Shown one piece after another: positions 9,016 through 53,740 of a DNA stretch of 64,000 nt (its first letter is position 1; the number at the start of each line of letters is the position of its first letter). Under the pieces are notes generated by a model. It did no database searches. It was not told where the DNA came from and worked only from the letters and a program-made list of their open reading frames with translations. The DNA is taken from assembly GCA_009602735.1 (NCBI GenBank), contig WELA01002297.1:514805-578804 (forward strand). The letters are read 5' to 3'. The stretch is from Mesotaenium endlicherianum. Its lineage: Eukaryota. The translations under genes and the position numbers were made by a program.

Positions 9016-9702
9016 CTAGCTCCTCCTCTCAACTTCATTATAGACTGGCAGCAGTGTCAGGTAAAATATTGCATCTTTGAAGCTATCGGGTTGCATGCTC
9101 ACCAACCTGATAAGCCTCTGATCCCCCACTATGCCAAGTTTTGGTACTGGCTTATCTTCTAAATCATCTGCAAGGAACTGCGCCTGCTCTGCTGTGTACC
9201 CCACCATCTTGGAATATTCCTCGTGAAGGACCACGCCAGTGGGTGTCTCAATATATCTATCCAGATCTTCCGCTCCCTGCCTTTAAAGTACTCTTTTTTG
9301 TTCCGCCTTGTTGATCTCCTGGGCTGCCAGTAATGCTTCCTTCAAGATATTAAAGGTTTGGCCACCCACTACAGTATCTCTGTAAGTGGCCAGGCTCTTT
9401 TGCTTCTCAGCTTCAGCCTTCTTTCTTTGTTCCTCTTCTGCTGCCGCCGCTTCCTCTTGTTGTTTCTTCTGTCTCTCCTTCTCAGCTTTCCTGAGGTTTG
9501 CAGCCTCCTGCTCCTTCTTCCTCTGCGCCTCATTTGCCGCCTCTTCTTGTCTGCGGACCCTATCTTGTTCTGTCTTGGTGAGGGACGTGGCCGCCAACTC
9601 TTTCAGGTAGTACTCCATTGTCCTCTTGGCTTTTTCCACCTTGCGCTTCTTGTCTTCCTTTTGTGTGGTGGGAGCCATCCTGCACATGTAGCCAAGATAC
9701 AA
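9016..9702 (-). pseudogene. Unassigned coding remnant, K/E/Q-rich coiled-coil-like, probably TE-derived
   Basis: ORFs 9283-9702 and 9016-9234 look protein-like, but no motif was recognised. Confidence 0.3.
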
Positions 9703-10484: not shown

Positions 10485-10985
10485 TGTAGTGAAACATATA
10501 AATAAAGCACTTAGTGACATATAATACTTAATCCATTCAAGACAAGGATCTTTGAACACAAGTGGTAGCTTCTTGAAAGAGAGATGGCTTCTTGAAAGTT
10601 AATGTATTTCTGGAATTCGGTAAGTACAAAAGTGATTCTCCCCTTTTTCTAAGTTCTAGCTCTTGAATATATACTTGCCACATAAGTAATTCCTAGGAAG
10701 GTGTATGTTGATGTGTCGGCACCCAACACGTCCCAAAACTTTTCACCTCTTTCTAGAATAATGCACACGTGTCCTTTTGACCTAAAAATGGCACATTTGA
10801 CTTTTGCCACATGGAGTTCTTCTAGGTCCTTCCTCTAACTTCGAAAATACCTTAGAAGGTTCAAAGGACATGAACCAAGTCACTAGAGTACCTATTCACA
10901 CTTGACTCCACACAATACTACTCCAAATATATTTGAAAACATTGAAATGTAAGCAAACTAATATGTTATAACTCAAATCACTACA
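10485..10985 (-). repeat. 3' LTR of C1
   Basis: TGTAGTGA...TCACTACA; adjacent PPT GGGGGGGTGA on the minus strand. Confidence 0.93.
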
Positions 10986-13900
10986 TCACCCCCCCGATAG
11001 AAAAAGCGACGTCTCGGCGCGTCAAGTCAGGTCTTAGACATGTGGAGCAGACTAGTCAACAGCTGCCACATATGTGAAGAGGATTAGTCAAAGGCGCCAA
11101 GTCAGGTGCTACACATGTAAGGTAGACTAGGCAAGGTCGTGGGTGGTGTGACCTTATTGGCTAGCCTACTCCTTGATGATAAAGAAAATTGTACAAGTTG
11201 GCTAAGAATCTGCCACAAATTCAAGAACTAATAGCGTCCACAGCACTGCTTCATATCTAAAAATTCTAGTACCAAACGGACCGCGTCGGAGAACTCTATT
11301 GGGTCACCAATTTTGAGAGCATTCTAATTCCTGGAGTTTCGTTGAGAGATGAGAGGGTAGGCACTTCTCCAAATCTGTGCAGAAACTTTTGAAAATCATA
11401 AATTCTTCGACACTTCTCCAAATTTTGCAAAGTAAGTTTCAAAATGGGCGCTGTAAGATGTTCCACCAAAGTCTTGAGTTTCAAAGCATTCCAAGTTCAG
11501 GGGAGAGCACAATGTCAAAAAGCAAGTTCTGTCCAAATAATGCCAGTAGTCTGACCCCCTTCTACTTAGAGCATCATATTTCTCTTACCAGTGCTTCAAA
11601 TTGAGCGAACTTGGATTCTAAATGACCAACTACTCATCGACTAGAGGCACGTAAATTTTTAAATTTTATTATGAAGAGACCTTCCACCACTAGCAATTTT
11701 AGTTTTCTGTCCAGAATCTTCGAGAAGAGAAGAGTGTCTAATGTCAATATTTCCTCTTTCTTGTTCTTGTAGGCTGCCTCCAAGGGGTCTTTTGCTGCTT
11801 CTTGATGGTGGCAGGTTGCCTCCCTAAAGTCTTCATGCTTCTAGTAGAGAGACTTGAGGGTGGTTCCAGATGGGGGTCGGCGGCATGGAAGCATTTCAGC
11901 TTTTCCTGAACTTTGTCAAGGTAGTAGGCCGCCACCCAACTATTCTCTGAATCTAGATATCCTTTCTACTTGATCAAGTATTGCTGCTGTCTCCTAAAAT
12001 TTCTCATAGTCAATATGTCTTCTACTTCTTACTCCACATGATCATCCACTATTTTTGGGACTGGTGGGGTTGTCACTCGTCCTGGGAACTTGTTGTCGGG
12101 TTGCACATATGGCTTAAAGAGGTAAGCGTAGAATACGGGGTCGATGTGCATAGTTTGGGGAAGTTCTAGCTTGAAAGCAACGGGGTTGACTTGCTAGATT
12201 ATCTTGAAGGGTCCCAAATACTTGGGAGAGAACTTGCTGCCGGCAGGCCTATTGTTTAGAAAAATATTCTTGGATGATAGTAACACGTTGTCACCCACTC
12301 TGTACGTAATTTCTCTTCTGGACCTGTTTGCGACTCTTGCTTGATCATCTTGCGCCTGTTGTAGAGCTTTCTTCGCTGCTGTAAGGGCCGCTTCTAATGT
12401 CTCCATAAAATTTGTTGCTGCAGGTACTTCATCATGGCCAACCGTGAAGCTCAGCGGCGTGGTTGGATGGAAGCCATAGTTGAGGAAGAATGGGGACTCT
12501 TGGGTAGAGGCCTGCGTAGTGTTGTTGTATGCAAACTCCAAGGGGGTCAAGTACATGTCCCAGTCTTGCTCCAGAGTAGACACGTAGGCCTCTAGAGAGG
12601 TCTTTAGGGTACGATTCATACGCTCGATTTGCCCATCTGATCATGGGTGGTAGGCAGTAGACATACCCAGCGATGTACCCAAGTTCTTGAAGAGATTTTT
12701 CCAGAAATGGCTTGTGAATCTTGGATCTTTATTTGAAATATTTCTTGACGATAGTCCATGGAGTCGGAACATGTTTTCAAAGATGAGTCTTGCAAGTTGT
12801 GGTGCTGTAGCCTTAGTCGTCGTGGGAATAAAATGAGCCATCTTGGTAAGTCTGTCCACCACCGTGAGTATTGCATTATGGCCTCAAGGTGTCGCGGGCA
12901 GGTCCACAATAAGGTCCATTGAGATGTCCGTCCATTGTCTTTCGAGGATTGGTAGTGGTTGGAGGAGTCCTCCCGCCTTTTGCGATGATGGCTTGATTCT
13001 TTGGCATGTGTCACAGCTCCTGCAGTACTCCTTGACTTGCTTAGACATGCCTGGCCAACAATAAGTCCTCGCTAGCACGCCCGTGGTCTTTAGGATTCCA
13101 AAGTGTCCTCCCAGAGGGTTGTCGTGTGCTTCTCGTAGAAGCATGAGCTGGAGGTCTAAGTCATTAAAAACACATCTTTGGCCCGTTTTTTGCCTCACCC
13201 AATAGTTTCCTTCTTGCTTTTTGTGTGGGTCAAGGGCTGCCTCGCCATTCGCATATTAAGGGTCCGCATCATAGGCGGCAGAAAGTTGAGCTTCCAGATG
13301 TGTACTCAGGGATATCATCACTGCATTTAATTGCAGTCTTGAGAGGGGGTCAGCCGGGATTGCCTTGCCGGGCTGGTACTGAATCGTGATGTTGTACTGT
13401 TGCAAGTATTCACTCCATCTTGCTTATCTCCGTGGAAAATACGGGTGCGTCTGGAGGTGCTTCAACGCCTCGTGGTCCGTAGTGACTAGCACCTTGCGTC
13501 CTTCAACGTAGCAGCGCCAAGCCTTCAAGGCATGAATAATCGCCAATGCCTCTCGCTCCGTACTTGTATAATTTTGCTCGGCTGGATTTAGCTTCCTTGA
13601 CTCATAGGCAATGGACTGCAGTCCCTTGCCTTGGTCTTGAAGCAGGATTGCTCTTATTGCATAGGAAGATGCATCGGTGATGACATGGAAGGGCCAATCT
13701 GGGTTTGGACTTGGGAGTGTGAGCATCGGGGATGTCGTCAATCTTCGCTTTAACTCTTGGAATGCCTCTTCCTCTTTCTTGGTCCATGTATATAGCCTGT
13801 CCCTCTTGAGTAAATCTGTCAGGGGGGCTGCTATGTGCAAGAAGCTCTGGATGAATCTCCTGTACGAATTGGCAAATCCCAAGAATGATAGGAGTTCTTT

Positions 13901-16022
13901 CTTGATCGCGGGGGTTGGCCATTCCTCCACCACCGTGGTCTTCTTGGGGTCCATCTTGATGCCATCAGCAGTCACGTGAAGACCTAGGAACTCCACTTCT
14001 TGTTTGGCAAACTCGCACTTTGACTCCTTTGCAAATAGCTTATTTTGCTTCAGGATTTTGAGCACTTCTTTCACGTGTCTTCCATGCTCTCCAAGGGTCT
14101 TGCTGTACATGAGAATTTTGTCAATGAATACCACCACAGATCAGTTCAGCAGGGGCTGAAATATGGTGTTCATCATAGTCATGAAAGTTGCTGGTGTGTT
14201 GGTGAGTCCAAATGGTAAGACCATGAACTCAAAATGTCCATATCTTGTCCTGAATGCCGTCTTCTCTATGTCCGGTTCTGCGATGCGAATCTGGTGGTAG
14301 CCGCTCCGTAAGTCAATCTTCGTGAAGTACTTGGCTCCAACCAGCTGGTCCATTAGCTCATCCATACGCGGCAGCGGGTATCGATTCTTGATGATGATCT
14401 TGTTGAGAGCGCGATAGTCCACACTCATCCTCAAAGTACCGTCCTTCTTCTTAACAAATAGCACCGGGGCTCCAAATGGCGACTTGCTAGGTCAAGTGAA
14501 GCCGTGGTCCAGTAGCTCTCTGATTTGCTTCTTGACTTCGTCTAGCTCCATATATGACATCTTGACGTAGGCCGAGAGATGGGCTTGCTTCCGGGCTCCA
14601 ACTCTATCTTGTGGTCTACGACTCTCGTGGGGGGTAGGCCCTTGGGCAATTCCGGGGAGAACACTTCTTTGTAGTCCTCTAGGCCTTCTTGTATCTCCTT
14701 GAGAATGGGGCTGCCTTCTTGACTCTCGATGTCTTTCTTGATGTCTTTTGGCGTGATCAAGGCCAAAAGAAGCTCGTGTCCTTTACTCACAAGTCTCTTG
14801 AGTTGGAGGGCGGAAAATAGTATCTTGTGTGCCAGCTTTTTGATGTCTTGGATCTGGATGTTCTGGATTACGCGTAAAATACAGATTCTTGAAGTGATGT
14901 CATTCTTGATTTTGATAGTACCGGTCCTCCAATCAACTTGGGGGTTGTGCTTGGTCAACCAAGGCATCCCTAGGACGACGTCGTACTTGCCCAATTGCAT
15001 GGGGGAGAACACTACTCTATCCTTGAAGGACTTGATAGAGAGTGACAAGGGGTACGTCTTCTTGGAAGGGGTAGTATAAGAGAACCCATTGGGCATCATA
15101 ATCTCCTCGTCGTGGTCAAGGGTTTGCATAGTAATACCGTGCTTGGTGGCAAAATTTGCAGCAATGAAGTTGCCTTGTGCTCCGCTATCCACCAAGATGT
15201 GGACCTTCTCTCCTCCAAGGTAACCTCTCAAACTCATTGGGGCTGGAACGTCGTCTTCGACGGGGGTCTCCACCTCACTTGGTTTGTTGCCTTCTTGTAA
15301 AGTGGGTCTTGGGGTGGTAGGCTCCTGGCCTACCTGCGCTGTCCGTTTTTTGACAACTTTTTGGGGCATGAGAGTGCACGATGGCCCTTTTCCTTGTAAT
15401 AAAAGCATAGTCCAGCCGTCACGAGAGCTTCTTTTTCAACCGGGGAGAGTCTTGCTTTCACTCCTTGCTGGTTTCTTGCATCATAAGTGTCATTGGAAGG
15501 TCTTCCACTCTTTCGGGCAGCCGCGGGGTCCCTTTCAATAACTCCAATTTCCATGGGTGTGGGTCCAGATTTGGATGTGGAAGGGGCTGCGTACACCCGA
15601 GTCGCCGATACCCATGAAGATGAAGGCACGGAGTGCTTGAAATCCAAGGTATCCACCTTTTGGGCCACTTCAATGATCTTTGAGAAGTCCGTCAAGTCGC
15701 GTAATTCCACTTCCTTTGCCACCTTGGGCTTGAGGCCAAAGATGTGGCGGTCAATCTTCTCCTTGAGAGACATGTTGGGGATCTCGAGAGTGAGGACGTG
15801 AAATCTGGATGTATATTCTTGAACGGACGTCATTTGCTTGAGATGGTAGAGCTTTCCTCAGACAATCTTCTCCGCATTGATGGGCATGAATTGCCTCTTG
15901 AGGGCCTCACGAAAATCTGCCCATCTTGCATATGATGGTGGGGGCTCTTGGCCGAGCATGGGGTGCGCCATAGCTTGATATATAGCCACTTGATANACTT
16001 GATAGTTATGCCACCATGATGT
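10485..16022 (-). mobile_element. C1: degenerate copy of chromovirus family C, 5' part missing
   Basis: Highly similar and collinear with intact C2 42117-47660, with stops and frameshifts. Interrupted in gag by D1. Confidence 0.93.
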
Positions 16023-16159
16023 TGTCGTGCGTTACGAGGTCAAGTGCGCACCATAGGCATAAGCAACACATCATAGGCAAGCAGGCTTTGCTGCACTGGA
16101 GTCTATAATACATGTGGCGTTATAGATCGAAAAGGGAGTCAAGTCGAAAATGTTTTAAT
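16023..16159 (-). repeat. D1 repeat B2 (element 3' terminus)
   Basis: Direct repeat of 16953-17088 with a few substitutions. Confidence 0.92.
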
Positions 16160-16950
16160 TAAGGGAAGTGTACTCTCCAGAGTGAGCACCTCAAGACTGT
16201 AATCTGGTGGGAAAACAACTAATGAAGTATGACCCAGAGGATCACTGGAAGAACATCATGATCTTCAGAGAAGTCCTATGGCAAGGGCTTAAGCTGTGAC
16301 TTTGCTCACCACTTGTGAAGTTCTTCAAGTGACTGGAAGCCTGGAGGGCTTGCTCTTCACAAGAGAGTAACTAAGTGGTCCTGAAAACACAAGGGATAAA
16401 AGTGTAAGCTTTACTGATAATCTCTGTTACTTACACCTGGCATAATGGACTTCTAAAAGATGTCTCTTCTAGGGACATCTCTACTAGCGCCTCAAAAGTG
16501 GATATGGAAATTGAGGAAGCTTCCTCTAGGAGTAGGTGATGCAGTCACCAAGTTATAGCCTCAATGATGCACATATACTATGGAAATGCAAAGTTTATGT
16601 AGGCTAAGGGGCTCGCGGATTTGTGCGCACAAAGCTTGGGGTCACGAAGAGCCAACAATGTCACCTTTGGGGACATTGAGTCACAAATTGGGCCTTGGGA
16701 AAGTTTCGTTAGGGACCGGTAGGTGACGCGGACTAGATCGCACCTATCTCGCTCGATACTTGACCAGATGACGCGAAATTGGTGCCATTCGGAAGATGCT
16801 TCGACGCGCTACACGTTGGTGACTTGAAAATCTAGAAAAGGTCAACATACGGATGCGTAAAGTCAATGCAAAGTTGGCCTTCCTAGGTTGATGTTTCGCA
16901 CATGTGGAGCTTGGTTTTATACGACAAACTCGACTCAATAAATCATGACA
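16160..16950 (-). repeat. D1 repeat A2 (791 bp), begins TGTCATGA on the element strand
   Basis: 16160-16452 matches 27568-27860. Confidence 0.88.
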
Positions 16951-16952
16951 GT

Positions 16953-17088
16953 TGTCGTGCGTTATGAGGTCGAGTGCGCACCATAGGCATAAGCAACACA
17001 TCATAGGCAAGCAGGCTTTGCTGCACTGGAGTCTATAATACATGTGGCGTTATAGCCAAAATGGGAGTCAAGTCAAAAATGTTTAAAT
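16953..17088 (-). repeat. D1 repeat B1, immediately after a G9 polypurine tract (17089-17097)
   Basis: Matches B2. Ends GCACGACA, then a 2-nt spacer AC, then the TG of A2. Confidence 0.92.
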
Positions 17089-17102
17089 CCCCCCCCCAGC
17101 TC

Positions 17103-20100
17103 TCAGCCTCTAGCTGATGGGCTGTGTACGCTGCCTAAGGCTAGCTCAGTGCAGTCTCCGCAGAACCAGTCTCCAGCTGGCACGCGGGCCAGCGGCGGAT
17201 CGAGGCAGCCGATGTGGAAGCCGAGGTTGCAGCTGTCGCAGAGCAGCATCTTGGCCTCCTGGCCAGTGCTGTGACAGATCTGGCACGCCCAGTCCTTGGG
17301 CCGCCGCGCGTCGCTAGGACAGACCTGCAAGTCAAGGTTAGGAAGGTGGCACGGCCCACAGTTCTTCGTGTGGTCCTTGTGAAGAGGGCCATCTGCGCCT
17401 ACCAGCTCCAGGACTCCTGACGCCAAGGCACGCTTGACGCGAAGGATGACCGGCGAGCTGCTGGTGTCGAGGGTGTTCTTCGTCTGGCGTCGCAGGTACA
17501 CGAAGTCACCTGCGGAAAACTGCAACACCCGCGGATGATAGGCTCCTCCACAAGTCATGGCGTACCTCAGCGTGTCGCGATGCTGTGCGATGCTGAGGTT
17601 ATCCATGGCCATGGGCATCAGGCGCCGAAAGAGCTGAGCACGCTGCCTGATAAGAGCACTCCATGTCTCGGGACTGTCCAAGTCCAAGACGTTCTCGGCC
17701 ACAGTCTTGGCTGCTGCTGGCAAATGGGCTGTCGGCCGAAGAGAAGGAAGTAGGGAGAGTGCGAAGCCAAGGAGGCCTGCTTACTGAACCTGTACCCCAT
17801 TGCTAGCCAAGGGAGGGCGTCGTCCCAGTGGGTACGGTCGTGGGCAAGGCAGTACTTCCGCAACCCTAGCTTGACGGTCTGCACCATGCGCTCGGCGAGG
17901 CCGTCAGCCTGAGGATGATCGCCGGAGGTGGTGCGGTGGTCAATCATAGAGCGCTCCAGCAGCTTCTAAAAGCTGCCCTGGAACTCCTTGCCCTGGTCGG
18001 TCAGCACCTCAGCGCAGCCGCCAAAACGGCTAAGGACCTGATTGAGGAAGGCCTGAGCGATCCCCTCACTGGCCTTGCTGGGCAGGGGCACGAGTTCGAT
18101 CCACTTGGACATGTGCTCAATCATCACCAAGACGTAGAGGTTGCCCTGGCGAGACTTGGGCAGCTCTCCAGCCAAGTCAAGCGACCACCTGTAGAACAGC
18201 CCCTGAATAGGAAGGGGGCTGAGGGCAACGATGCGCGCTGGGAAGCTCGAGTGCACACTGTCGCAGAGAGTGCAGCTGCTGACGACAGCGGCGACAACCT
18301 TAGTCATGCCGTGCCACCAGTACTCGGCCTGAAGAAGACTGAGGGTGCGCTTGACACCGAAGTGCCCGAAGGACTCATGCACTCGACGCACCTGCTGCCT
18401 GCGTATGGCAGGCTCAGGGACCACCAGGACGGAGCCGTCTGCCATCACGCGCCGCACGCGCCCCTCCATGAAAATGAAGTCGGGGCTGCGCCTGAGGATG
18501 CGGTTGCGCTCGCGTGCGCTGACATCAGGTGCCAACTCCTTGGCCGTGACGTACTGCAGCACTGGGGCGTCGTCCCATACGTCCTCGGGACCGCGCTGCC
18601 AGCTGTCCTGATCCTCTGCCGCTGCCAGGGCCAATCGCCGTGTGGTGACGGTCACCATGTCCAGGCTAGTGAGCCTTGCGGGCCGCACATCGCCGTCCAC
18701 GGTAAAGGCTCGGAAGGCCGCCGCATGCCAGGCCACCGGCTCATCCTCATCGTGGCGGGCCACATTGAGATCCCTCGAGGAGGGCAGCGGGTTACGGCTG
18801 AGACCGTCAGCGTCCAGGTTGGTTGAGCCTGGGCGGTGGTGCACGTCAAAGGTGTACTCCTGCAAGATAAGCGCCCACCGTGCGTACTTGCCGGTCAAGC
18901 GCTCCGATGTCATGAGCCACTTAAGTGGCTGGTGGTCGGTGACTAGGCGGAAGTGCGTGCCGTAGAGATAGTGCCTGAAGTGCACGATCGCCCAGACTGC
19001 TGCCAGGCACTCCCCCTCGTAGGAGCCGTAGTTGCCTTCCGCGCGGTTGTTGCTGCAACTGGCGTAGGCCACCACATGCTCGAAGCCGTCATGCTCTTGC
19101 ACCAGCACAGCGCCCAGCCCTGCCTGCGACCAATTGGTGTGGAGGATGAAGGGCTTCGCATAGTCCGGACGCCAAAGCACAGGAGCGCTCACCAGCAGCT
19201 CCTTGAGCTTATCAAATGCCGCCTGCTGCTCTGGTCCCCACTCGTAGGCAACGCCCTTGCGGAGCAAGTCGTTGAGCGGCTTGGCTAGCTCGCTGAACCC
19301 TGGCACGAAGCGGCGGTAGTATTTGGCCATGCTGAGGAAGGCCCGCAGCTGCGAGAGATCTGTAGGAGGTGGGATGCCTGTGATGGCCGAGATCTTTGCC
19401 AGCTGGGGTGCCAAGCCGCTGGAGAAGAGCAGGTGGCCAAGGTACTCCACCTCGCGGGTCCCAAAAGTGCACTTGCCTGGATGGCACTTGAGCCCAGCGG
19501 CCTCCAAGCGGTCTAGGACAGTAGTGATGTGCGCCACGTGCTCCTCAAACGTTTGACTAAAGACGAGCACGTCATCGATGTAGCATCGGGCGAAGGATAG
19601 CCCAGCCAACTCCTTGTCCATCACCCTCTGAAAGGTAGCTGGCGCATTCTTCAACCCAAACGGCATCACCACCCACTCGTAGAGCCGCTGTGCTCCCCAG
19701 AACGCCGTCTTATGCTAGTCCTCCTCGGCGATGGGAATTTGGTTGAAGCCCTGACGCAGATCCAGCACTGAGAACCAAGTGCACGTGCCAATGTCGTCAA
19801 AGATCTCGTCAGGCGTCGGCATAGGATATCTGTCCTGCTCGGTGACCTCGTTCAGTCTACGATAGTCACCGCACATTCTTTTCTTGGACCAGTTGCCCGA
19901 GGCATCCTTCTTGGCTGGCATGACTGTGGGTGCGGCATAGCAAGAGGAGGACTCTCAAATGAGCCGGCTGTCCTCCAGCTTGCTTGTCTGCGCGTTGATC
20001 AAGTCATCCTCGAAGTGGCTGTAGCGATAACGCTTCAGAAAAATGGGCTCCTGCGACGTGAGAGTAATCCGCATGGGGTCATCCCTGTAGCGCCCTAGAT
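17103..20100 (-). pseudogene. D1 pol: RT-RNaseH-integrase-PHD finger (disrupted)
   Basis: MCGDYRRLN, VMPFGLKNAPATFQR, YIDD, HHCC (HESFGHFG...CTLC), WSLDLAG/LTDQG/GLAERMV, and C4HC3 PHD CQICHS...LLCDSCNLGFHIGCLDPPL...WFCGDC. Confidence 0.93.
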
Positions 20101-20689
20101 CGTGCATGCCGCTGGCAAAGCTGGTGCTGCGCCTCCCGTCCAGCAGTGCCGTCAACTGTGCAGCCTGCGCCTTGGTGAGTGTCCCCCCTAGCTTCCATGC
20201 CGGTGGAGCTGGTGGCGTCGCCTGACCTGCAGCTGGAGTCTCTTGTCTTGCCGTTGGGGTAGACTGTGGTGCTGCAGGTGTCACCTGCCCTGCAGCGGTT
20301 GGCGCTCGGCCTGCCGCGGGTACCTGCACTGTGGCAGCTGCGGCCAGCTGCCTGGCACTGTCTGCCTGCGAGCAACCATCTGCCTGCGAGCGAGGAAAAA
20401 GAAAAAGTGACCGGGACTCTCTGGCTCGCTGTGAGGACTCCTCTCACCGCCGTCCCCCCCCCAGCAAACCAGATTCCTCCCTGCGCGGCGGTGGGGAGGG
20501 GGGGCGGGTTCGCGCTGGCGGTGCAGGCCTTGCGCGCTGAGGATGCCACGTCGTACCGGGCGGGGCTTGATTGTCATTGTCGGTGGAGTCATTGTCCATA
20601 TCATCGGCAAGCCGAGGCAGCTCGGGATGCCGGGCTGCGGCGTAGAGAGGCGCCAAGGCCTGCGTCTGCAGCAGGAATCCACGGGAGGA

Positions 20690-21620
20690 CGTTGGCGTCG
20701 ATCGCCTGCCCCAAGAGGCGAATGCGGTTCACCTCAATGAGACCATCCACCTGTGTGAGATGCGGCGGGAAGCCCATGGCACGCTCCATCTCCGCAGGAC
20801 GCGGCCTGTCAAACATGCCAGTTTCCAGGTCGATGACCATCCCGCGCTGATCTCCAACGAAGGCGTCGCTGTCGTAACGGCTGACAAAAGTTGGCAGCGC
20901 GCGAGTGACGTCATGCAGGACCTCACACTGTGCCATGGGGGGATGTGGTAGTGCAGTCACGCGCTGGGCCAGACGAGGGGCATCGAGGATGGAGTCGACG
21001 GTGCGTGGGTGACGTGGATGAGAGGCGGCCAACGCCTCGAGAGTACCTGGCATTGCCAGGTTCGTGAAGTAGGCGCGGACGCGGTGCACGAAGGAACCAA
21101 TCTGGGCAGCGTCGATGACGGCCTCGCGGCCGACGTAGCAACTGCAAAGAGCGAAGTTGGCGCTAACATTGGGTCGACGATCGTGGCGCGCGGCCACGTT
21201 CTCCAGGACTCGAGTGTATGTGGCGGCTGTCGATCCTCAACAATGTTGAGGACGCGGAGCAAGTGCCAGAAGAGGGCCGTGCGGGGATTGCCGAGCGCCC
21301 TGCCACGCCCGGCTCTGGAGAAGCCCTGGCACTCCCAACCGGCGATGACGAGGTCTATGGACCCAAGTTGGGTGACATGCTCGACTGTGATGTCGCGGAT
21401 GTCCATGGGCCAGTCTGTCTGAGCGCGGTAGAATGCGTGCGCAAGAAGGAGGTCAGGGAATCGCTCGTGGCCCAACGCCATCTGCCGACGGGCCACTTGC
21501 TGGGCCTGAGGATCGAGATCGACGTAGACGTAGCGGCGTACCGGGATGCCGGCTTGTAAGGCCGCGAGCAACCCGGTGGCGATGTCGGCGAAGAGCTCGA
21601 CGAGGACGATGCCGCCGGGC
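20690..21620 (-). pseudogene. D1 DNMT3-like C5 cytosine methyltransferase domain (one frameshift near 21210)
   Basis: VLVELFADIATGLL (I), YVYVD (II), DIRDI (III), IDLVIAGWECQGFSRAG (IV), ENV (VI), HRVRAYFTNL (VIII), EMERAMGFPPHLT...RIRLLGQAID (IX/X), in canonical order. Confidence 0.92.
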
Positions 21621-23164
21621 CGCTCGTCTAGAGCGTCTGCGCAGATAGGAGTCGGAAGTGGGCGACACCCCATTGCAGGGGTGCCGGGCTGAGCGGGCGG
21701 CGGGAAGGTATGCTCGGCGCTGTGCTGATGTGGCGCCATGCGGAGGGCGGCCACAGCACGGTCTGCATAGTCACGCATAAGGCTGGGGATGCGGTCAGTG
21801 AGCGGCTGCGGACGCTCCTCCCGTGCGTGGTCCTGGTAGGTGCGCCACCGCAGGCGCGCATCCTGCAGGGCTGTCGGAGAGACAGCGCGGGCTTGACGTC
21901 GGGCCGAGGCCACGCACAGCTGCTGCCACCTGTCGCGCTGGGCGCGGTCAGTCTGGTGCGAGGCCACGTGGGCCAGCTGGTTGAGAACGGGACGTGGAGT
22001 CAAGTAGGGGTGCGGGCCGAAGTAGGCTCGCTGGCGTGCGCGCATGTCTGCAGAGGGGACTGTGCAGACGGAGCGCTCGGAGCTGTCGACCTCCTGCGGG
22101 GACCAAACTAACCAGCGAGGGGCCAGCTGGACTCGCGGCCGGGGCTGCCCTCGTGGGACGGGCGCGTCTCGGGGCTGCCGGAGACTAGACATGAGCCGTG
22201 TGCGTGCGGCGGCCGTGAATGGGTGACGACTGGGCGGCCTGCTGTCGGTGCGGGCCACCTTGGGAGGAGGTGACCCGGAGGGACCGTCGCCAGCGATGTG
22301 GCTGCTGGCGCGCGGAGCGGTAGGGGCCAGCATCACGAAATGCGCCTCGGAAGAAGACTAAGCGTCGGCGCCAGCTGAGAGGGACCGGAAGGGCGGAGTG
22401 CGGCGTCGGTCTCAAGTGTCGTTGTACGACGGCGTGTCCCCGCGGACCCGCGTGTCGTCGTAAGGAGGTGTGCGGTCCCTCTCGTCGTAGGGCGGCGTGA
22501 TGGAGCGGGCTCGCGTCTCGCGGAGGGGAGTCACCTTTTGCGTCTCGCAAAGGGGTGTGAGCTATTGGGAGCGGCTCGTCTCGCGGAGAGGAGTGGTCGC
22601 TCGAGCGGGTCCGATGGTCGGCCAAGTGCGATGTGCGTAGGTCAGATGGGCGCAGATAGACGGGGTCGTGCGGATTGGCTCGCGGACGCTGAGCCTGGGC
22701 GCTAGCTGCTGTATGGAGTGTGTGCCAGCGCTAGAGGAGGCCGCGGCAGCCCGGCTCGTCGCAAACAAATGCGCGATGCTGCGACACTCGTGGCTCGTCG
22801 AGCAGTCGAGTGACATTGGTCGGCTGGGTCCAGCGGCATCGGTACGAGCCCTGCTGGGCCAGTCGTGAGTCATGGGCTGGCTGGGTGCGCTGAAGCCGGG
22901 CGGACCAGTAGGTGCGCGTTGCCTGCGTGCTATAGGCGCAGCTGGCGGGGGCTCCTCTGGTGGCGCCGCGCTGAGCGCCTCGACGGATGTCTCTGGCAGT
23001 TGCTCCCACTGTGTCTCCTCCTCACTCTTGAGGGACTGGTCGTCGGATCTGCCAGGATAAGGTGCCTGCCGCATGGCCTCGTCCTCGGATGCCGTGGTGC
23101 GAGGCCAGGTCTCGCCGGACTGATGCAAGGCGTCATGAGGGGGCGGCTGAGATTCCATACTGTA

Positions 23165-24316
23165 CTAAATGGCCACACCAACAGGCACGTCGTGGCGAAC
23201 GCGGATTTTGGTCCTTGCGGACGGCTCGCCGCGAGAGGCCAAGACCCCTTGATGAGCCGTAGGCGCTGCGGCCGCATTTCGAGCAAGGGCGGCGGCAGCG
23301 ATGGCTGTGCTAGCCGTGGCGAGGGCCTCAGTGGCATCGTCCGCCATCTGCCGCATCATCGCGCTGTGGGCAGTGCAGATGCGGATCTGCTCCCTGGCCT
23401 GGGCTGCCAGGACATCCGCCTGCTGCTGCGGCGTGAGGTGGAGCTCGGCACTAGGTAGGTCCGGTTCCTCGTCTTGTGGCTCGAGCAAGTCCACCCCCAC
23501 AGAGATCTCCTCGTCCTTGGGCCCGTCCTTATTGGTCTTGACCACTAGCCGGCCATCGTTCAGCCCCATGAAGCCATAAAGAGCGGACACTGCTGGGCGG
23601 CGATCGACAATGTCAAGGGGCAAGGATGCGGTGCGCGTCCCCCCTATCCTCCAGTCGGGACAATGGAAGACGCGCTCTGCCCAGTTGTCGACCGCGGCGC
23701 CAATGGGAAAGAGTACGTCCTGCCCTAGGAGCACATCGAAGGACTTGGAAGGAGTGACGAGTGCGTGCCGGTGGATGGTTGTCTCGTCTGCCGTGCCTGG
23801 GCGCAGAGTGAACAGTAGCGCCAACCTTGTGCAGCCGGCGACGGTCTCGGACGTGTCGGCGGCGGTGTTAATGCGCGTCGGAGAGTCCTCCAAGTCGGCG
23901 GAAGAGAGTCCCAGCTGCCGGAAGTAGCGGAGGCTGATGAGAACCGGCTGCGCGCTTGTGTCGAACATGATGCGCTGCGGCGCCTGGGTGTTGACGAGCA
24001 CGATCCTCTGCGAATTATCCAGAAACGCGGCTTTAGGAGTGTTGATCATCCTGCGCTCCTGCGCAGGGCGCGCGGGCGCGGATCGCACCGCGGTGGCGGC
24101 ATCGATGGTCGGCCTCGTGGCTGCGGTGCGTAGCGTGGCTCTGCGCGACTGGAGCATCCGCTGAGCGGCCTGCCTCGTTGCCTCCATGGAGACGCCGAAC
24201 TCTGCGAAGGAGACCGTCGGCATGCGGTGCAGTGCGAGAGAGATGACCTCCGCGCTGAGCTGCACCGTCGTCATAGGTGAAGCGAGCGCATGTGGCGTCA
24301 GCTTTGTTGAGGTCAT
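23165..24316 (-). CDS. D1 aspartic protease region
   Basis: IMFDTSAQPVLI ... FDVLLGQDVL; homologous to D2 LLDTGAQLII ... YDVLLGTEAL. Confidence 0.8.
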   Translation of the reverse strand: MTSTKLTPHALASPMTTVQLSAEVISLALHRMPTVSFAEFGVSMEATRQAAQRMLQSRRATLRTAATRPTIDAATAVRSAPARPAQERRMINTPKAAFLDNSQRIVLVNTQAPQRIMFDTSAQPVLISLRYFRQLGLSSADLEDSPTRINTAADTSETVAGCTRLALLFTLRPGTADETTIHRHALVTPSKSFDVLLGQDVLFPIGAAVDNWAERVFHCPDWRIGGTRTASLPLDIVDRRPAVSALYGFMGLNDGRLVVKTNKDGPKDEEISVGVDLLEPQDEEPDLPSAELHLTPQQQADVLAAQAREQIRICTAHSAMMRQMADDATEALATASTAIAAAALARNAAAAPTAHQGVLASRGEPSARTKIRVRHDVPVGVAI

Positions 24317-24627
24317 GGAGGGCTCTAGGATGCGGAAGGAACGGGGCAGCCGCGGTGCCTCCTCCGTCCGGCGTCCCTGGTCTGGCCCGGCGCGCTTCTG
24401 CGGAACAACGGGCTAACCGGCCGGTGCTACGAGCGTGTTCTCACGGCTCGCGCGCCCGACTGCGGAGCGGCTGCCGAGTGGCTGTGCGTGTGCGCAGCAG
24501 GCCAAAAAGGCCGCTGCTGGCGCAGCCGGCAAACCTGCCGCGCATTCTGCCGCGGGGCCTGTTGCAGCGCCGTGCGCGCAGCTTGCCGCGAGGCCTGCCG
24601 CGGGGCCCGTTGCGAGATCTGCCGCCG

Positions 24628-25068: not shown

Positions 25069-26439
25069 GCTGCTGCCGGGGTTTTGTGCGCAGCCAGGGT
25101 TTAGGCCCTGGCTGTGCGCAGCCGTGCGCGGGCCGTCGGCACCGCGATCAGACATCCGACCGCGTGGCGCAGTCGAGGTAGCCCCCCCCTGACTGAGGGT
25201 GGCTGCTCCGACCGCCAGATCTGTGCCGGCTGAGCCGGGCCATGCGTGCGTGCCAAGTGGCGGCACGTGCGCGGCAGGGGCTGAGCCCTGGATGTGCGCA
25301 GCTACGGGTGCGCTGTCGGTGCTTTTGCCGGCGATCCGGCCGCACAGCGCAGTCAGGACACTCTCCTGCTGACCGAGGGTGGCGGCCGCTGCGGCCGTCG
25401 CTGAGCTGGCCGTGCGGGACTGCGCGCACGTGCCACTTGGCAACGCGTGGGTGCAGCTGCTGTGCGCAGCTGCAGCTGCTGCTGTGACGATGTCGTGGTG
25501 TTGCTGGGTGCGCCGTGGACATGGCAGCGCAGTGCGCGGGGCGCGCGTGTGAGCCAGCGTGCGTGCGTGCATGCTGCTGTCGGCAGGGGCGGCCCCGCTT
25601 ATCGTGCACGTGCAACGTGGCGGGTTCTGCTGGCGCCTGCTGTCTGCGGCAGCCAGCGGGGACCAGCTGTCCCCGCCTGTGCGCAGAGATGCGCACGGGC
25701 GTGTCGCACGGACGGGGAGGGAGGCTGCGGCCAGACCAGCTGTAGCCGTGCATGCCGCCAGGTGCCCCCGTCCCTGCCTGCCAGCTGTTGCTACGCGGGC
25801 TGACGGGAGGCCTGCTGGTGCCAGCAGGGAAACGTAAGCCAGGGGCTCTGTCGGGGCCTCGGCTGGCGTGCGGGCTGGCCCGCGTGAGCGCAAGCTTGCG
25901 CCGGGGGATGGCGCAACCACGCAGTCGTGCAGCCTGCCATCCGGCAGTCTGTCGGGTTTCCGGCTGTCGCTGTTGACAGCTGCTAGAGCGGTGCACACAG
26001 GGCTAGCAAAGCTGCCTGTGCGGGTGCGTGCAGCTCTGGCAGCGGGCGCTACGTCGTAACGCGGACGTGCACGGGGCTGCGGCGCTGCCGCTGAGCCTGA
26101 TGCGTGCGCTGAAGCTGTGAGTGCGCCAGCTGTCAGTGCCGTGGCGTAGGACGGTGGAGCGGACGCAAGAAGTGCTCCGCACGCGTCATAGTTATCGACG
26201 TCGATGAGGCCACGGAGCCTAGCGATCTCCGCGTTGGCCTCCACGAGGGCGTCGTTGACGTCGTCGAAGCTGCAGTAGTCGGCTCCAGGCATCAGTGCAG
26301 CGTCCGTCGTCGCCGTAGCTGCTGTCATTGCGGGGCAGCCACCCGTACGAGGGTTGCGTGCGTCTCGCTGTCCTGCTGACGGCGTAGGGCTGTCGCGAGC
26401 GCGTCCGTTCTCGACGTCGCGCTTCTTCTGCAGACAGAC

Positions 26440-27519
26440 GATCTGCAGGTGGCTGGCCTTGCCACAATAGGTGCAGTCGCCAGGCTTGCCATTCTGCGCA
26501 AGAGTGCACTTTTGGCGTGAGTGGCCCGTCTTCCCGCAGGACCAGCAGGGATCGCTCGTAGTGGCAGCCATGAAAACGCGGCCATGCATAGCTCCTCGCT
26601 GCTGTGTCTGCTGGGGCAGCTGAGAGCGCTGAGGCTGCTGCTGCTACGACTGGGGCTGGCGGGCAGGCGTCGTGCGCGTCGTAGAAGACGGCAGCACTGA
26701 GGCCTCCTGGCGCACGCCCGTAGATGCTAAGCCCACACGATCGCTAATGTTGCTCCGTGCGGCGGCCAAGCTCTGTTTCTCAACCGAGAGGTAGGCCTGC
26801 TTCAGAGAATACTCTGAATCGTGGCGGTCGATGAGGGGGACTACAGCCCTCTCCATCAGACGCGGCTCGACGGCGCGCAAGAAGATCTCCGCGGCCTCCC
26901 GGTCAGTGACAGTTTCGACATCGCGGCGGAGGTGCACCAAGCGGCGGTACATCATGCGAATAGTCTCGTTCTTGCGACGGAAGAAATGGTGCAGCTCGTA
27001 CACCTTCTCTTCAGTTGCAGCCTGGAACTCTGTCTTCAGGATGTTCCAGAAGGCTTGCACTGGATCAGCTAGCAGGGTCGCCAGTGGTGGGTCACCCACA
27101 AGCTCAGTGCGGGTCCGAAGCTCGGCCTCCTTCTCACGGAAGGTGTCGCGGGCCTCGTGCGAGAGGTAGCGCATAAGCGTGTCAAAGACGTTGCGCTTAG
27201 TCAGCGTGGGTGTCTTGAGCTTTGCAGCCGCGAAGTCAGCCTGAAACTCCGAGATTGTATCTTCCAGATCACAGGTGCCTGGCCTACCGCTGAAGCGGTA
27301 GGCAGACCTGTCAGTCTTGACCTCGTGGTCACCTGCCATGGGATACCAGAAATCGTAGTGAGCCCACTGGGGAGATGGCTCAGAAGCAACTGCCGTGTGC
27401 TGGAGAGCAGGTTGCTCTTCTTCGGCGGGTTTAGTGATAGTGCTGAGATCCGAGTCTAAGTCTTCTCCACCAACCCCTTTGTAGTATGGCTGATAAGAAA
27501 GCCCACTACGGGTAGGCAT
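26440..27519 (-). pseudogene. D1 gag (in-frame TAG at 26644-26646) with two zinc knuckles
   Basis: ORFs 26644-27519 and 24427-26589 are in the same frame. Knuckles CWSCGKTGHSRQKC and CTYCGKASHLQIVC. Confidence 0.85.
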
Positions 27520-27548
27520 ACGCTGAAGGTTCTAATTGCTTGAAGGCA

Positions 27549-27568
27549 AAGAGAGATCTTTTAGAAGT
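27549..27568 (-). promoter_or_regulatory. Putative self-priming PBS of D1
   Basis: ACTTCTAAAAGATCTCTCTT directly after A1 is complementary at 19/20 positions to repeat-A segment 16449-16468. No TGG-initiated tRNA PBS is present. Confidence 0.6.
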
Positions 27569-27860
27569 AAGGGAAGTGTACTCTCCAGAGTGAGCACCTC
27601 AAGACTGTAATCTGGTAGGAAAACAACTAATGAAGTATGGCCCAAAAGATCACAGGAAGCACATCACGATCTTCAGAGTAGTCCAATGGCAAGGGCTTAA
27701 GCTGTGACTTTGCTCACCACTTGTGAAGTTCTTCAAGAGACTGGAAGCCTGGAGGGCTTGCTCTTCACAAGAGAGTAACTAAGTGGTCCTGAAAACACAA
27801 GAGATAAAAGTGTAAGCTTTACTGATAATCTCTGTTACTTACACCTGGCATAATGGACTT
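27568..27860 (-). repeat. D1 repeat A1 (5'-truncated)
   Basis: Matches 16160-16452. Ends exactly where A2 meets B2, 48 nt before the gag ATG. Confidence 0.92.
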
Positions 27861-35260: not shown

Positions 35261-35625
35261 TAGCATGGTGCCTAAGCAGAGGCTTAGATTGCCAATCATC
35301 TTGCCTCGAGGGAGATGGAGAGAGGAAGTCTGGAGATGGCATTTCAAATGATGGCTCCATCAACCTCGAAGACTTACAACACGTACTAGAGGCGTTTCCA
35401 AGAATGCTGCACACGGATGAAGGTATAAAACCTCCCTGCATCTGTTCCTACAGCTAGATTGTACTTGCTACACCTCTTGCAGGAAAGAGTCAGCATTTGA
35501 ACCTACTGCCTATTTATCTATCTGTGCCTAATTCTTATTATGTCTCTTTATGCTATATCTAATTCTGTATCTCTCATTAGTCTACTTTGTGACTTCCCTC
35601 AGTTCTAAATATTTTTTCGGCCATC

Positions 35626-36572
35626 TGTCGCGACTGCTATCCACTTGACAGTGCCGCACGCGCAACGCAAGTCACGGCCGTCCAGGTACGGAAAGTCAGC
35701 GTTGACGCACCAACCAAAAGACTGAGTTATCTCAGTCGGCGGTTATGTCAAAGTCGTTATCACTGTCAAAGTGGTCACGACACGTCAAACCCCATACCCA
35801 GGGATGTTGCAGAGGCGTTGCGTGCCACCTCGGTTAAGAGCCTCGAGTGACTAGCCACAGCTTGAGCGTTCATCTCAAACGCTGCCAGCCGCCAGCCACA
35901 TAGGCGTGATTGCCAGCTGAAACACTAAGCAGTCACGTGCGACAATCACAAGGCGTGCATGCATGCTGAGTGACAACTTCTAAAGTTGTTTGAGGGCTGT
36001 TAGGTAAGGACGGCATGCAAGCTAGGCGCTGTGACTAAGCACTGGCATTCTTGAGAGAGGATAATGTGTGGTGCCTGCAAAAGGCACTAATCTTGCCTGA
36101 AGCTGTCTCATTCTTGCTTGCATTATTGTCAAGGAAGCTGAAGGAGCAGGTACAGAAGAAAAGGAGAAGAAGGAGCGCAAAGAAGAAGGAGTTCCCAAGG
36201 CCACAGAAGAGCCGAGACGCCACGCTTCTGCCGATGCGGGAAGCTTTCTTCTCAATGTATCATAGAAAGGTCAGACCTCAGAAATTTCCAAGAGAGGATC
36301 TCGCTGGTAGAAAGTAGAGAGCTGCAAAATAGAATTTGTCAGGAGATTAGCACAGATTCGGGTCAAACGCCACAAGCGTGCGAAAGTCACTTAAAACAAT
36401 GAGTGCTGTGTTAGTTTCCAAGTTCTCAGAAGTCTCAATTGTCGAATTGCTGATAGCAAGAGTAGCATTAACAAGTAAAGCTCTTAGTGAAGAATTGAGT
36501 GAGCCTAGCCAAGCAATGAAGAATTGTTAAGGCGCGATGTTGAGCGAAGAGCTCAGACCAGGCCAGCATAGA
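35626..36572 (+). repeat. D2 repeat A1 (3' part and gag N-terminus apparently deleted)
   Basis: Matches 51329-~52398 except for a segment of about 125 bp that is missing. Confidence 0.92.
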
Positions 36573-41299: not shown

Positions 41300-42116
41300 A
41301 AGAAGCACCGCAAGGTGTTTGCTTTCACCAAGGAGGAGATTGGTAGAACCAGTGCCAGTGTGTGTGAGATCACACTAAGTACTGATAACCCAGTTAGACT
41401 TGGGCCGCATAAGCTCAGTTAGACCGAATGGGACTGTGTGGAGAAAACTTGCCAGGAGCTGCACAAGCTCGGCATGATTGAGAAATCAACATCAGTACAT
41501 GGAGCTTCCAGAGTAGTAGTTGCCAAGAAGGACGAGGCTGGCAATTATACAGCCACTCGTATGTGTGGAGACTACGGGCGACTGAATCTCCACACGGAGC
41601 CAGACAGCTACGTGATGCCTACACCAGAGTGGATCTTTGCGATTGCCACCACCGGGAAGGTGTTCAGCATCATCGATCTATGCCAAGGCTTGAACCAGAT
41701 CCCTGTGAAAATAGAAGATTGTATTAAGACCGCTTTCTGGACTCAAAGGGAACTTTGGCAATGGACGATAGTGCCGTTTGGGCTGAAATGCCCCAGCCAT
41801 ATTTCAGAAGACTATGTATAAAGTGCTGGAGGGGCTGACTTTTGCAAATCCATACATTGATGACATAGTGGTGTTCAGCAAGTCCATAGAGGAGCACCTT
41901 GAGCACTTGGAACAAGTGTTCCAGCGCCTGGAGAAATTCCAGATAACGCTGCATCCTGGAAAATGCAGATTCTTTGAGGCACATGGGCCTTACTTAAGAT
42001 ATAGAATTGGGAACAATGCTATGTCCCCACAGCCAGTAAAGGCTGAGGCCATTTACAAGAAACCTGCACCTGCAAATGTGTCCAAGTTGAAAGCTCTATT
42101 AGGGCTGAGCGGATAC
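41300..42116 (+). pseudogene. D2 reverse transcriptase, 5' part
   Basis: RMCGDYGRLN, IIDLCQGLNQIPV, PFGLK, PYIDDIVVFS; cut at LSGY by C2. Confidence 0.9.
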
Positions 42117-48256: not shown

Positions 48257-48280
48257 CTTCTTGTGCTACCAAAGTGCCTA

Positions 48281-48292
48281 GCTCCGATACCA
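48281..48292 (-). promoter_or_regulatory. C2 PBS (tRNA-iMet type, TGGTATCGGAGC)
   Basis: 1 nt from the 5' LTR end. Confidence 0.9.
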
Positions 48293-48293
48293 C

Positions 48294-50938: not shown

Positions 50939-50985
50939 AAGTTTTCAGCGGCAAGGAAGGGACGCCTCAACTGAAAAGGAGGGGC

Positions 50986-51326
50986 GTAAGGGAAACTGAG
51001 GATAGGCTAACTTTCAAAAAATTTCTACTAAGTGTTGGTAGTGTGGAATAAGGAATTGGTTGAGCATGGGAAGCACTGAGTGTGGGATGCTTCACCGCAT
51101 GATGCAAGTGCAGGAAGACCAGGAATGGGTCAACCCCCAGCTAGTCTGCCGCCGACACACGTGCAAAGGTCGATCAACCCGGTCGATTTCCCACGTGCAG
51201 CAACGCACCGACCTGTCGACCAGGGAATCCCCGTACGCGAGAAGGACCGCCGACACGTTGACGTTGAAGGCACACGTGCTGAGAAGCCACGCACGTGCCA
51301 GGGGTCTGACGCTGTTATGCACAACA
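50986..51326 (+). repeat. D2 repeat B1, after PPT GAAAAGGAGGGG (50973-50984)
   Basis: Matches 52591-52934. Ends GCACAACA, then spacer GC, then TGTCG. Confidence 0.92.
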
Positions 51327-51328
51327 GC

Positions 51329-52590
51329 TGTCGCGACTGCTATCCACTTGACGGTGCCGCACGCGCCGCGCAAGTCACGGCCGCCCAGGTACGGAAAGTC
51401 AGGGTTGACGCACCGACCAAAGGACTGAATTATCTCAGTCAGCGATTATGTCAAAGTCGTTATCATTGTCAAAGTGGTCACGACACGTCGAACCCCACAC
51501 CCAAAGATGGATGGGGATTTGGACGGAGTAGTCAGCCGAAAGGCTAGGGGCCTGGGACCAGCAATGAGCCAGCCCAACAAGTGCCAAGGAAGGTACTGAT
51601 CAATCGGCTATCTAAGCCAAGTACAGCAGGGATGTTGCAGAGGCCTTGTGTGCCACTTCGGCCAAGACCCTCGAGTGATTAGCCACGGCTTGAGCGTTCA
51701 TCTCAAACGCTGCCAGCCGCCAGCCACATAGGCGTAATTGCCAACTGAAAGGCTACGCAGTCACGCGCGACAGTCACAAGGCGTGCATGCACTTTGAGTG
51801 ACAACTTCTAAAGCTGTTTAAGGGCTGCTAGGTAAGGACGGCATACAAGTTAGGGGCTGTGACTAAGCACTGGCATTCTCGAGAGAGGAAAATGTGAGGT
51901 GCCTGCGAAAGGTACGAGTCTTGGCTGAAGCTGCCTCATTCTTGCTCGCATCGTTGTCAAGGACGCCGAAGGAGCAGGTACAAAAGGAAAGGAGAAGAAG
52001 GAGCGCGAAGAAGAAGGAGTTCCCAAGGCCACAGGAGAGCCGAGACGCCACGCTTCTGCCGACGCTGGACGATTTCTTCTCAGTGTATCATAGAAAGGTT
52101 AGACCTTAGGAGTTTCCAAGAGGGGATCTTGCTGGTAGAAAGTAGAGAGCTAAAGAATAGAATCTGTCAAGAGATTAGCACAGATTCGGGTCAAACACCA
52201 CAAGCGTGTGAAAGTCACTTAAAACGGTGAGTGCTGTGTTAGTTTCTAAGTTCTCAGAAGTCTCAATTGTCGAATTGCTGATAGCAAGAGTAGTATTAAC
52301 AAGTAAAGCTCTCAGTAAAGAACTGAGTGAGCCCAGCCAAGCAGTGAAGAACTGTTGGCGCGATGTTGAGCGAAGAGCTTAGACCAGGCCAGCATAGATG
52401 TGCAGTTTCAGAGTTTTGTAAGCTGTGACTTTGTGAAAGTCAAGCAAAAGTCCTGAAGGGCAACTTTCTTTGAATCTGGGATTGCCTGTTAAACTGCTTA
52501 AACGTGATTTCTGCAAACTACAAACTTGTTCATTCTGTAAACCCTCAACTTGGGCAAAGGCCTGCGTGGAAGTAAGACGCTTATGTCCTT
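51329..52590 (+). repeat. D2 repeat A2
   Basis: Starts TGTCGCGACTGC, exactly as the element 5' end at 35626. Confidence 0.92.
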
Positions 52591-52934
52591 GTAAGGGAAA
52601 CTGAGGATAAGCTAACTTTCAAAAATTTCTACTAAGTGTTGGTTGTGTGGAATGAGGAACTGGTTGAGCATGGGAAGCAATGAGTGTGGGATGCTTCACC
52701 GCATGATGCAAGTGCAGGAAGACCAGGAAATGGGTCAACCCCCAGCTAGTCTGTCACCGACACACGTGCAAAGGTCAATCAACGCGGGTGATTCCCCAAG
52801 TGCAATAACGCACCGACCAAGCGACCAGGGAATCTTCGTACGCGAGAAGGACCGCCGACACGTCGACCAGATTGAAGGTTCACGTGCTGAGAAGCCACGC
52901 ACCTGCCAGGGGTCCGACGCTGTTAGGCACGACA
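52591..52934 (+). repeat. D2 repeat B2 (3' terminus)
   Basis: Ends GCACGACA, followed by TSD CATC. Confidence 0.92.
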
Positions 52935-53740
52935 CATCTCGCTATCGTAAATTGTAGAAATGCTTATTGATTTTGATTTGAAGTCTTCACAGCGAGCACA
53001 TGGCCTCCTGTTCCATGGTCTGTCCAAATGCTCTGACTACAAGCGTCGCGATTTTGATACCCTTTCTCGCTTTTGAAATGGACGTTCGTCGACGCCGCAT
53101 GGATGATGACTCCGCAATATGAGAAAGTGTATGTCAAGTCCAGAAAGTTCAGATGACCTCCTGATGGCATTTGCGTTTTGACGTATTCTGTGCACTTTAC
53201 GTCATATTTCGATTCTACACTCAAATGGATAGCAAGCAGCCCGCCAAAAGAAAACCACAAAACGGGTCGAACTACAGAACGACACGTTGTACCGCGAGGT
53301 ACACTTGTGTTAGAGACACTTCCTAGTCAGCACGCAGTACGCTAATAACACCTGCGATTACTTCGCTCCTCATACCGATTACCACTTATACGAGTATCGT
53401 TAGGAGCAATACATACATACCGAAATAGTTGGACCTCAGATGGACGATACACCGTCCGATTAGATTCCCCTTAGACCTGACGACTAGATTCAGATAGTGA
53501 GGAACGCCGCCGCAGACAACCATAGAGACTATCGAAGTTCCTGAGTTGCCTACATAAGACAACTCCCGACCATTGTACATCATTCTATGCTCGGAAATCT
53601 AAGCTCGATTTTGACCGTCATTGTCATTACTTTGCGTCCTTTGCACTTGGGTACAATCGAATAGAATCTGAAACCAGCCCTAAACGATTTTGACGATCTG
53701 GCAAAAGTGGCCATGAAAAGCAATGAAATGTAGCGAACCT

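Follow-up and report, generated by a model that had tools for sequence, protein, structure and literature searches.

The locus described here raises the question of how an element with the coding region of a Ty3/gypsy retrotransposon can carry terminal repeats that are split in the order A...B-A-B, and by what route such an element would be inserted. The element, D1, is located on the minus strand of the window, which is the whole stretch of 64,000 nucleotides analysed; a second one, D2, is located on the plus strand. Judging from the sequence, we consider it probable, with considerable reserve, that the integrase of this Ty3/gypsy element would open an end-joined, two-repeat circular cDNA at an internal site.

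Coding region and terminus of D1

D1 is a decayed element with in-frame stops and frame changes in which the domains for gag, protease, a cytosine methyltransferase, RT, RNase H, a DDE integrase (rve) and a PHD finger were found. On the minus strand, a gag-like region with zinc knuckles (26000..27531; CCHC-like motifs found by eye, no match in the Pfam scan and a weak match to the gag of a relative, L081, with E 2e-4) is followed by the aspartic protease region (23165..24412, Pfam scan) and by a C5 cytosine methyltransferase in two frames (20601..22357; Pfam DNA_methylase E 4.3e-08), which matches the intact domain of L081. The RT, the RNase H and the H2C2 and core parts of the integrase come next (17966..19714), with an in-frame stop in the core and a frame change later, and the C-terminal part of the integrase with the PHD finger completes the coding region (17103..17780; Pfam PHD E 8.6e-12). 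This is the Ty3/gypsy order (gag-protease-RT-RNase H-integrase), with the DDE core interrupted in D1. D2 has the same domains as D1, and the methyltransferase lies within the gypsy polyprotein in D1, in the D2 remnant and in L081. No tyrosine recombinase was matched by Pfam in the scanned open reading frames of D1, which contains a gap of 441 Ns, and D2, nor in 11 of the 16 listed open reading frames of L081, which carries an rve integrase. A chromodomain after the integrase was not found in D1 and L081, where a PHD finger stands instead. A further D1-like fragment with the methyltransferase and the start of the RT lies at 5079-7594 on the minus strand with 70-77% DNA identity to D1, and no repeats were found near it.

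The layout of D1 on the minus strand is A1...PPT-B1-ac-A2-B2, followed by a chromovirus gag. A polypurine tract (PPT) of nine G residues (17089..17097, by sequence reading) is directly followed by the first base of B1 (16953..17088, 136 bp), which ends in GCACGACA. The spacer AC (16952-16951) separates B1 from A2 (16160..16950, 791 bp), which starts with TGTCATGA, and B2 (16023..16159, 137 bp), again ending in GCACGACA, forms the right end of the element. Re-reading of the terminus bore out the order PPT-B1-ac-A2-B2 of a preliminary description to the single base, together with the lengths that it gave for B1 and A2, whereas B2 has 137 bp and not 136. The two B repeats match with E 5e-55 and differ by seven substitutions in 134 columns and one gap. 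The internal junction GCACGACA-ac-TGTCATGA (16943..16960, minus strand) is att-like, being an imperfect inverted repeat with a 2-nt spacer.

Only the 3' 293 bp of A1 remain upstream of gag (27568..27860, minus strand), recognised by their match to A2 (E 7e-136); the 5' part is deleted along with the upstream host DNA. A1 and A2 are alike up to ...TTCCCTTA, beyond which A1 continues into the leader and A2 into B2, so that A1 stops where A2 meets B2 and is followed by the leader and not by B, as previously described. The expectation that B is absent from either side of A1 also held in the integrated copies, where A1 of D2 follows host CATC and A1 of D1 runs into a PBS-like site.

The target of D1 is a second chromovirus copy in the window (10485-16022). 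In the intact chromovirus copy this site is uninterrupted, near 47661, and in run X5 the empty site appears as the loose end of a contig. The right junction of D1 is ambiguous over 4 nt, with CAAC also present in the host, and a 4-bp target duplication (TSD) ATGT in the host chromovirus gag (16019..16022, plus strand; partner copy deleted) is predicted on the assumption that D1 ends at CA. A crossover of the recombinase type at the CAAC that D1 has in common with its host was considered and rejected because the flanks of D2 and of another relative, L082, do not match their own spacers.

Relatives of D1 and conservation of the split terminus

D2 is the sole copy with both ends, which read CATC/TGTC...GACA/CATC. 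Its A1 (35626..36572, starting with TGTCGCGA) follows the left target duplication CATC (35622..35625) and lacks its 3' part through a deletion, in which about 190 bp of A were apparently lost together with the PBS and the greater part of gag. B1 (50985..51326) comes after a purine tract and ends in GCACAACA; it is followed by the spacer GC (51327-51328), A2 (51329..52590) and B2, which extends to 52934, ends in GCACGACA and is followed by the right target duplication CATC (52591..52938 for B2 with the duplication), all on the plus strand. A 4-bp duplication, which the preliminary description proposed to look for in intact D1-family copies, is found here, as CATC on both sides, in the one element of one that has both ends (chance about 1 in 256). 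D2 has the TG...CA ends and a duplication within the 4-6 bp of LTR retrotransposons. Its RT region holds a nearly intact chromovirus (42115-48796, minus strand) with 6 differences in 505 bp between the LTRs and a 5-bp TSD, GATAC.

A search of the genome collection gave two loci, L081 and L082, which are two contigs of the same clade in genome bin G001 and evidently eukaryotic contigs inside a cyanobacterial bin. The terminus of L082 reads PPT-B1(106 bp)-ACACGACA-gc-TGTCACG-A2(360 bp)-B2-ACACGACA-flank. L081 is an 87% identical sister of L082 with open reading frames and an open integrase core. In this circular contig B precedes the gag-leading A, and A1 and A2 are indistinguishable.

L081 (1-9285) is apparently intact and has a gag-protease-methyltransferase frame with one in-frame TAG (3489-3491), followed by RT-RH-INT-PHD; the position of the TAG suggests stop-codon readthrough. 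It is a likely eukaryotic contaminant of the bin, alongside other retroelement contigs. The contig closes on itself (1-127 and 9159-9285) and holds one B-gc-A unit, which may stem from the collapse of a repeat, from a tandem array or from a genuine circle with one repeat.

The A-coding-B-A-B layout is present in D1, D2 and L082. No BLAST match longer than 15 nt was found between the terminal repeats of D1 and D2, which agrees with the earlier statement that they are dissimilar apart from the att-like core, and no mutual match above 16 nt was found among the repeats of D1, D2 and L082. The pattern CACRACA-nn-TGTCRYG, which was derived from the very sites counted, occurs twice in the window (D1 and D2) against 0.01 expected, and none of 100 shuffles reaches two. 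A spacer of 2 nt was observed in all four relatives (three independent families); an invariant spacer had been proposed, and this holds for its length but not for its sequence (AC, GC). The two divergent families of the preliminary description stand as two observations but not as two origins, with D1 and D2 placed in one clade. Its argument for a conserved mechanism and against an accident holds and is supported by L082, which comes from an unrelated dataset and has the same PPT-B1-CA-nn-TG-A2-B2-CA, and by the layout reported for KnitGypsy-Dnmt3 (PMC5890265, legend of Fig. 4c). The split terminus is real and conserved.

The decayed, nested and truncated state of D1 and the assembly gaps in the window would suit an explanation by accident or artefact, namely an ordinary A+B LTR that lost its 5' B by deletion and captured a circle junction, or an assembly error. 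This is extremely improbable, as D1, D2 and L082 have the same terminus with unrelated repeats and the layout of the Klebsormidium nitens element is in print. In addition, D1 B1 differs from B2 and is therefore not a collapsed copy, and a contig of run X1 covers the PPT and most of B1.

In a FastTree phylogeny of RT, RNase H and integrase (70 sequences, 558 columns), D1, D2, L081, three K. nitens proteins and liverwort proteins form one clade with a support of 0.999. D1, L081, the integrase of D2 and the chromovirus of the window entered the tree along with 66 of 120 listed matches, chosen as the top 40, the named or PHD-bearing matches and every fourth of the remainder; the three K. nitens proteins of the tree are assumed to be the published KnitGypsy-Dnmt3. 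Among the 120 listed matches, the best named ones to D1 pol come from Calypogeia, K. nitens, Riccia and Marchantia, that of Marchantia with PF00145. D1 belongs to a known but barely described clade. The family and the A-coding-B-A-B layout are already in print, in that de Mendoza et al. (2018) describe KnitGypsy-Dnmt3 as having DIRS-like A-coding-B-A-B repeats and Gypsy domains (PMC5890265, legend of Fig. 4c), and a 2026 bioRxiv preprint mentions streptophyte Gypsy-DNMT3 in passing in its accessible part. The accessible text of PMC5890265 is silent on a PPT, a PBS, an att junction, a TSD and a model of replication, and the word 'PHD' is absent from its main text as available. D1 resembles KnitGypsy-Dnmt3 in its Gypsy domains, its polyprotein cytosine methyltransferase, its A-coding-B-A-B repeats and its position in the tree, whereas the clade found here also takes in liverwort proteins and a likely zygnematophyte host. 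One glycosyltransferase piece of the window has 91% identity, over 48% of its length, with a gene model that bears the label Mesen1, which stands for the zygnematophyte Mesotaenium, and such an alga is the likely host. The self-priming site, the position of B at the PPT, the att site inside the repeat, the ends and TSD of D2 and the terminus of L082 are apparently new. No replication mechanism for a split-repeat Gypsy was found in the literature searched, outside which lay Repbase Reports, theses, most subscription journals, figures and preprint supplements.

Among 80 loci of a metagenome scan, only L001 and L002 match the methyltransferase or PHD tail of the clade, and both end too early. The other metagenome loci with repeats (at least 3 kb) carry ordinary LTR pairs or unrelated repeats. 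Two protein scans of the viral collection gave no relative, and none of the 120 loci of its motif scan had a retroelement match. One of 401 genomes of the cyanobacterial phylum matched, and no further copies beyond L081 and L082 were found in G001.

Priming signals and the repeat copied by reverse transcription

Reverse transcription duplicates the stretch that is bounded by the PPT and the PBS. The ordinary LTR anatomy of identical LTRs with PPT/TG and CA/PBS was not found in D1, where the PPT leads into B1 and A, not CA, stands before the PBS-like site; the window chromovirus, which serves as an internal control, has the ordinary PPT/TG...CA/TGG. The homology between B1 and B2 starts 0 nt after the G run in D1, 1 nt after it in D2 and at most 2 nt after it in L082 (three of three). 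At the other side, the homology between A1 and A2 of D1 stops at the PBS-like site (27556..27568, minus strand), which is the reverse complement of 16461-16449, a 13-nt stretch inside A2 (16449..16461, minus strand) that is predicted to be the self-primer and the 5' end of the RNA. Since the PPT precedes B and the PBS follows A, the repeat copied by reverse transcription is likely to be B-nn-A and not A-B. The CA-nn-TG site lies within this B-nn-A repeat.

The self-priming site is present in both elements that retain this boundary (D1 and L081). The PBS-like site of L081 differs from that of D1 at three of 13 positions, and all three differences are compensated in the pairing partner. A 12-mer complement arises in only two of 3000 dinucleotide shuffles of A2, and no internal position reaches that complement in D1 (0 of 9881) or in L081 (0 of 8598). 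The fold of the L081 leader pairs the primer with the PBS, with a probability of at least 0.89 at nine of the 13 positions. In D2 no complement of 11 nt or more was found between the leader and A2, because of the deletion. Few reads came from the RNA runs X23 and X24; most of them are 90-95% alike and fit only in part, and none of those listed starts at 16461. In Tf1/Sushi and Tcn1 the PBS pairs with part of the 5' repeat and not with a tRNA, according to the accessible parts of PMC4600332, PMC5341516 and PMC6317226, and the 13-nt complement is, by its sequence, a signature of Tf1-type self-priming.

By eye, we noticed a short hairpin that overlaps the predicted start of the RNA in L081 (7228-7255, with the start predicted at 7239) and in the window (16485-16458), and, within A and downstream of the start predicted for D1, a GT...AG intron-like stretch (16434-16381, minus strand). 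In several runs, contigs and RNA reads follow A as far as 16485 and then continue into another sequence that they have in common. This suggests a sister subfamily that is alike upstream but has another R/U5 and primer.

Seams and the proposed route of insertion

At the A2/B2 seam of D1 (16159..16160, minus strand), A extends to the PBS boundary and B begins with the first base after the PPT, from which we infer that the seam is a join of two cDNA ends. The A and B pairs are equally diverged in both elements of the window (D1: A pair 12/295, B pair 7/134, p 0.62; D2: A pair 84/932, B pair 31/346, p 1.0). Taken together with the identity of B1 and B2 in L082 (106 of 106 positions), this fits the derivation of both B repeats from one template at insertion.

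In the scheme that we propose, the RNA would begin inside A, and its first 13 nt or so would pair after A1 and prime the minus strand, as in Tf1. The plus strand, primed at the PPT, would then yield a linear cDNA (B-nn-A)-internal-(B-nn-A) whose physical ends are without TG/CA, and joining of the A end to the B start would create the A/B seam. Integrase would nick after CA on both strands of the left CA-nn-TG, which amounts to one staggered cut; the products would be two CA-3' ends, each with a 5' overhang of 2 nt. Two such ends are the geometry of processed retroviral ends, and a single staggered cut that leaves them needs a 2-nt spacer. Strand transfer would finally give TSD-A1-internal-PPT-B1-nn-A2-B2-TSD, which is the layout seen.

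The three complete seams are nearly precise, with 0-2 nt lost, and in L081/L082 the A end with the PBS and the start of B have 5-7 nt in common (CACTTGA). These two features fit a template jump as well as a ligation. In a third template jump of the reverse transcriptase, the plus strand would run past A, jump to B of the left end and copy through CA-nn-TG, with no closed circle; the molecule in which integrase would cut the internal att sites would be linear or nicked. The near-precise seams in all three complete copies, the common nucleotides of L081/L082, which would help the jump, and the start of D1 B2 with ATTAAAACAT, one base nearer to the PBS than B1, speak for this reading, which would also account for only the productive layout being seen. 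The D1 seam, however, has no clear microhomology beyond 1-2 nt. Among the matches listed for run X1, three single-contig joints link A to B elsewhere, with A short by 26, 8 and 8 nt, B short by 0, 21 and 118 nt and 1, 17 and 13 other letters between them. Those with extra letters look like end-joining, but these joints may be subfamily differences or later deletions. We hold the template jump, the main rival of the circle, to be rather unlikely. The end-joined circle for its part has two att sites and would predict mirror (A-B-nn-A-internal-B) and one-repeat (A-internal-B) insertions, none of which was found among three complete 3' ends, which counts weakly against the circle (1 in 8 if unbiased). 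The self-primer of Tf1 stays on the cDNA; if it were kept likewise here, seams might contain PBS remnants, of which the D1 seam has none. That integrase acts at the internal att site is common to the circle and the template jump, and is highly probable.

The order A1...B1-A2-B2, the internal junction of element ends and, often, a methyltransferase are shared with PAT, Ngaro and VIPER, and one may ask whether the D1 clade replicates as these do, with an RNA that reads through A2 into B2, a B1/A2 junction that templates the ends and a seam inherited from the parent. The repeat order is the same in the parts of PMC4157794 and PMC6681497 that describe these elements, DIRS-1 requires its ICR (PMC7192593, accessible part), and precise seams would be consistent with inheritance. 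Nevertheless, the PPT before B1 and the covarying self-priming site point to an ordinary LTR cycle, which would not copy B2; the B pairs are no more diverged than the A pairs; and the 4-bp TSD of D2 is unrelated to its spacer, with no tyrosine recombinase matched. Such a cycle is accordingly very unlikely for D1. PAT, Ngaro and VIPER encode a tyrosine recombinase, whereas the integrase of the D1 clade is of the DDE type and goes with TG...CA ends, a PPT and a TSD of 4 bp.

D1 is set apart from the LTR elements of known mechanism because its PPT and PBS do not abut the TG/CA ends. Tf1/Sushi and Tcn1 resemble it in that the PBS pairs with the 5' repeat, but are chromoviruses that have ordinary LTRs with att ends, whereas D1 has a PHD finger and its att site inside the repeat. 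In circles of the IS3/IS30 type, a DDE enzyme also acts on two abutted ends with a 2-3 nt spacer, but these are DNA transposons in which the junction is made by the transposase and does not lie inside a reverse-transcribed repeat. The integrases of foamy virus and HIV-1, according to the accessible parts of PMC1180852 and PMC4372172, cleave the internal, palindromic CA...TG junction of 2-LTR circles to CA-3' ends. There the cut is a side route at the ligated junction; in D1 the RNA itself would carry the cut site, the join would lie elsewhere and the route would be obligatory. Troyka is another LTR lineage with unusual termini, and the assignment of D1 to it was rejected as Troyka has CG...CG ends, a 3-bp TSD and ordinary LTRs and occurs in animals only (PMC12440569, accessible part).

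We lean slightly towards the broader reading that D1 represents an old streptophyte Ty3/gypsy lineage in which the integrase site would have moved into the LTR, with integration only via a two-repeat circle and by one staggered cut. The 2-LTR circles have long been regarded as dead ends (PMC4372172, accessible part), whereas the anatomy of the D1 clade predicts them as the normal route. If true, this would be the first retroelement whose obligatory precursor is a 2-LTR circle, and it would suggest that the split repeats of PAT and Ngaro represent the same geometry with another recombinase. With an att site inside the repeat, integration would no longer depend on precisely formed cDNA ends. The question is directly testable with the intact L081 and its kin in Marchantia and Klebsormidium. 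A-B-A-B repeats are no longer diagnostic of a tyrosine recombinase, and LTR finders that require identical TG...CA repeats next to a PPT and a PBS are expected to miss or mis-cut such elements. In the window itself, pieces of a host glycosyltransferase (GT1 Pfam match) were observed among the nested elements at 55446-57227.
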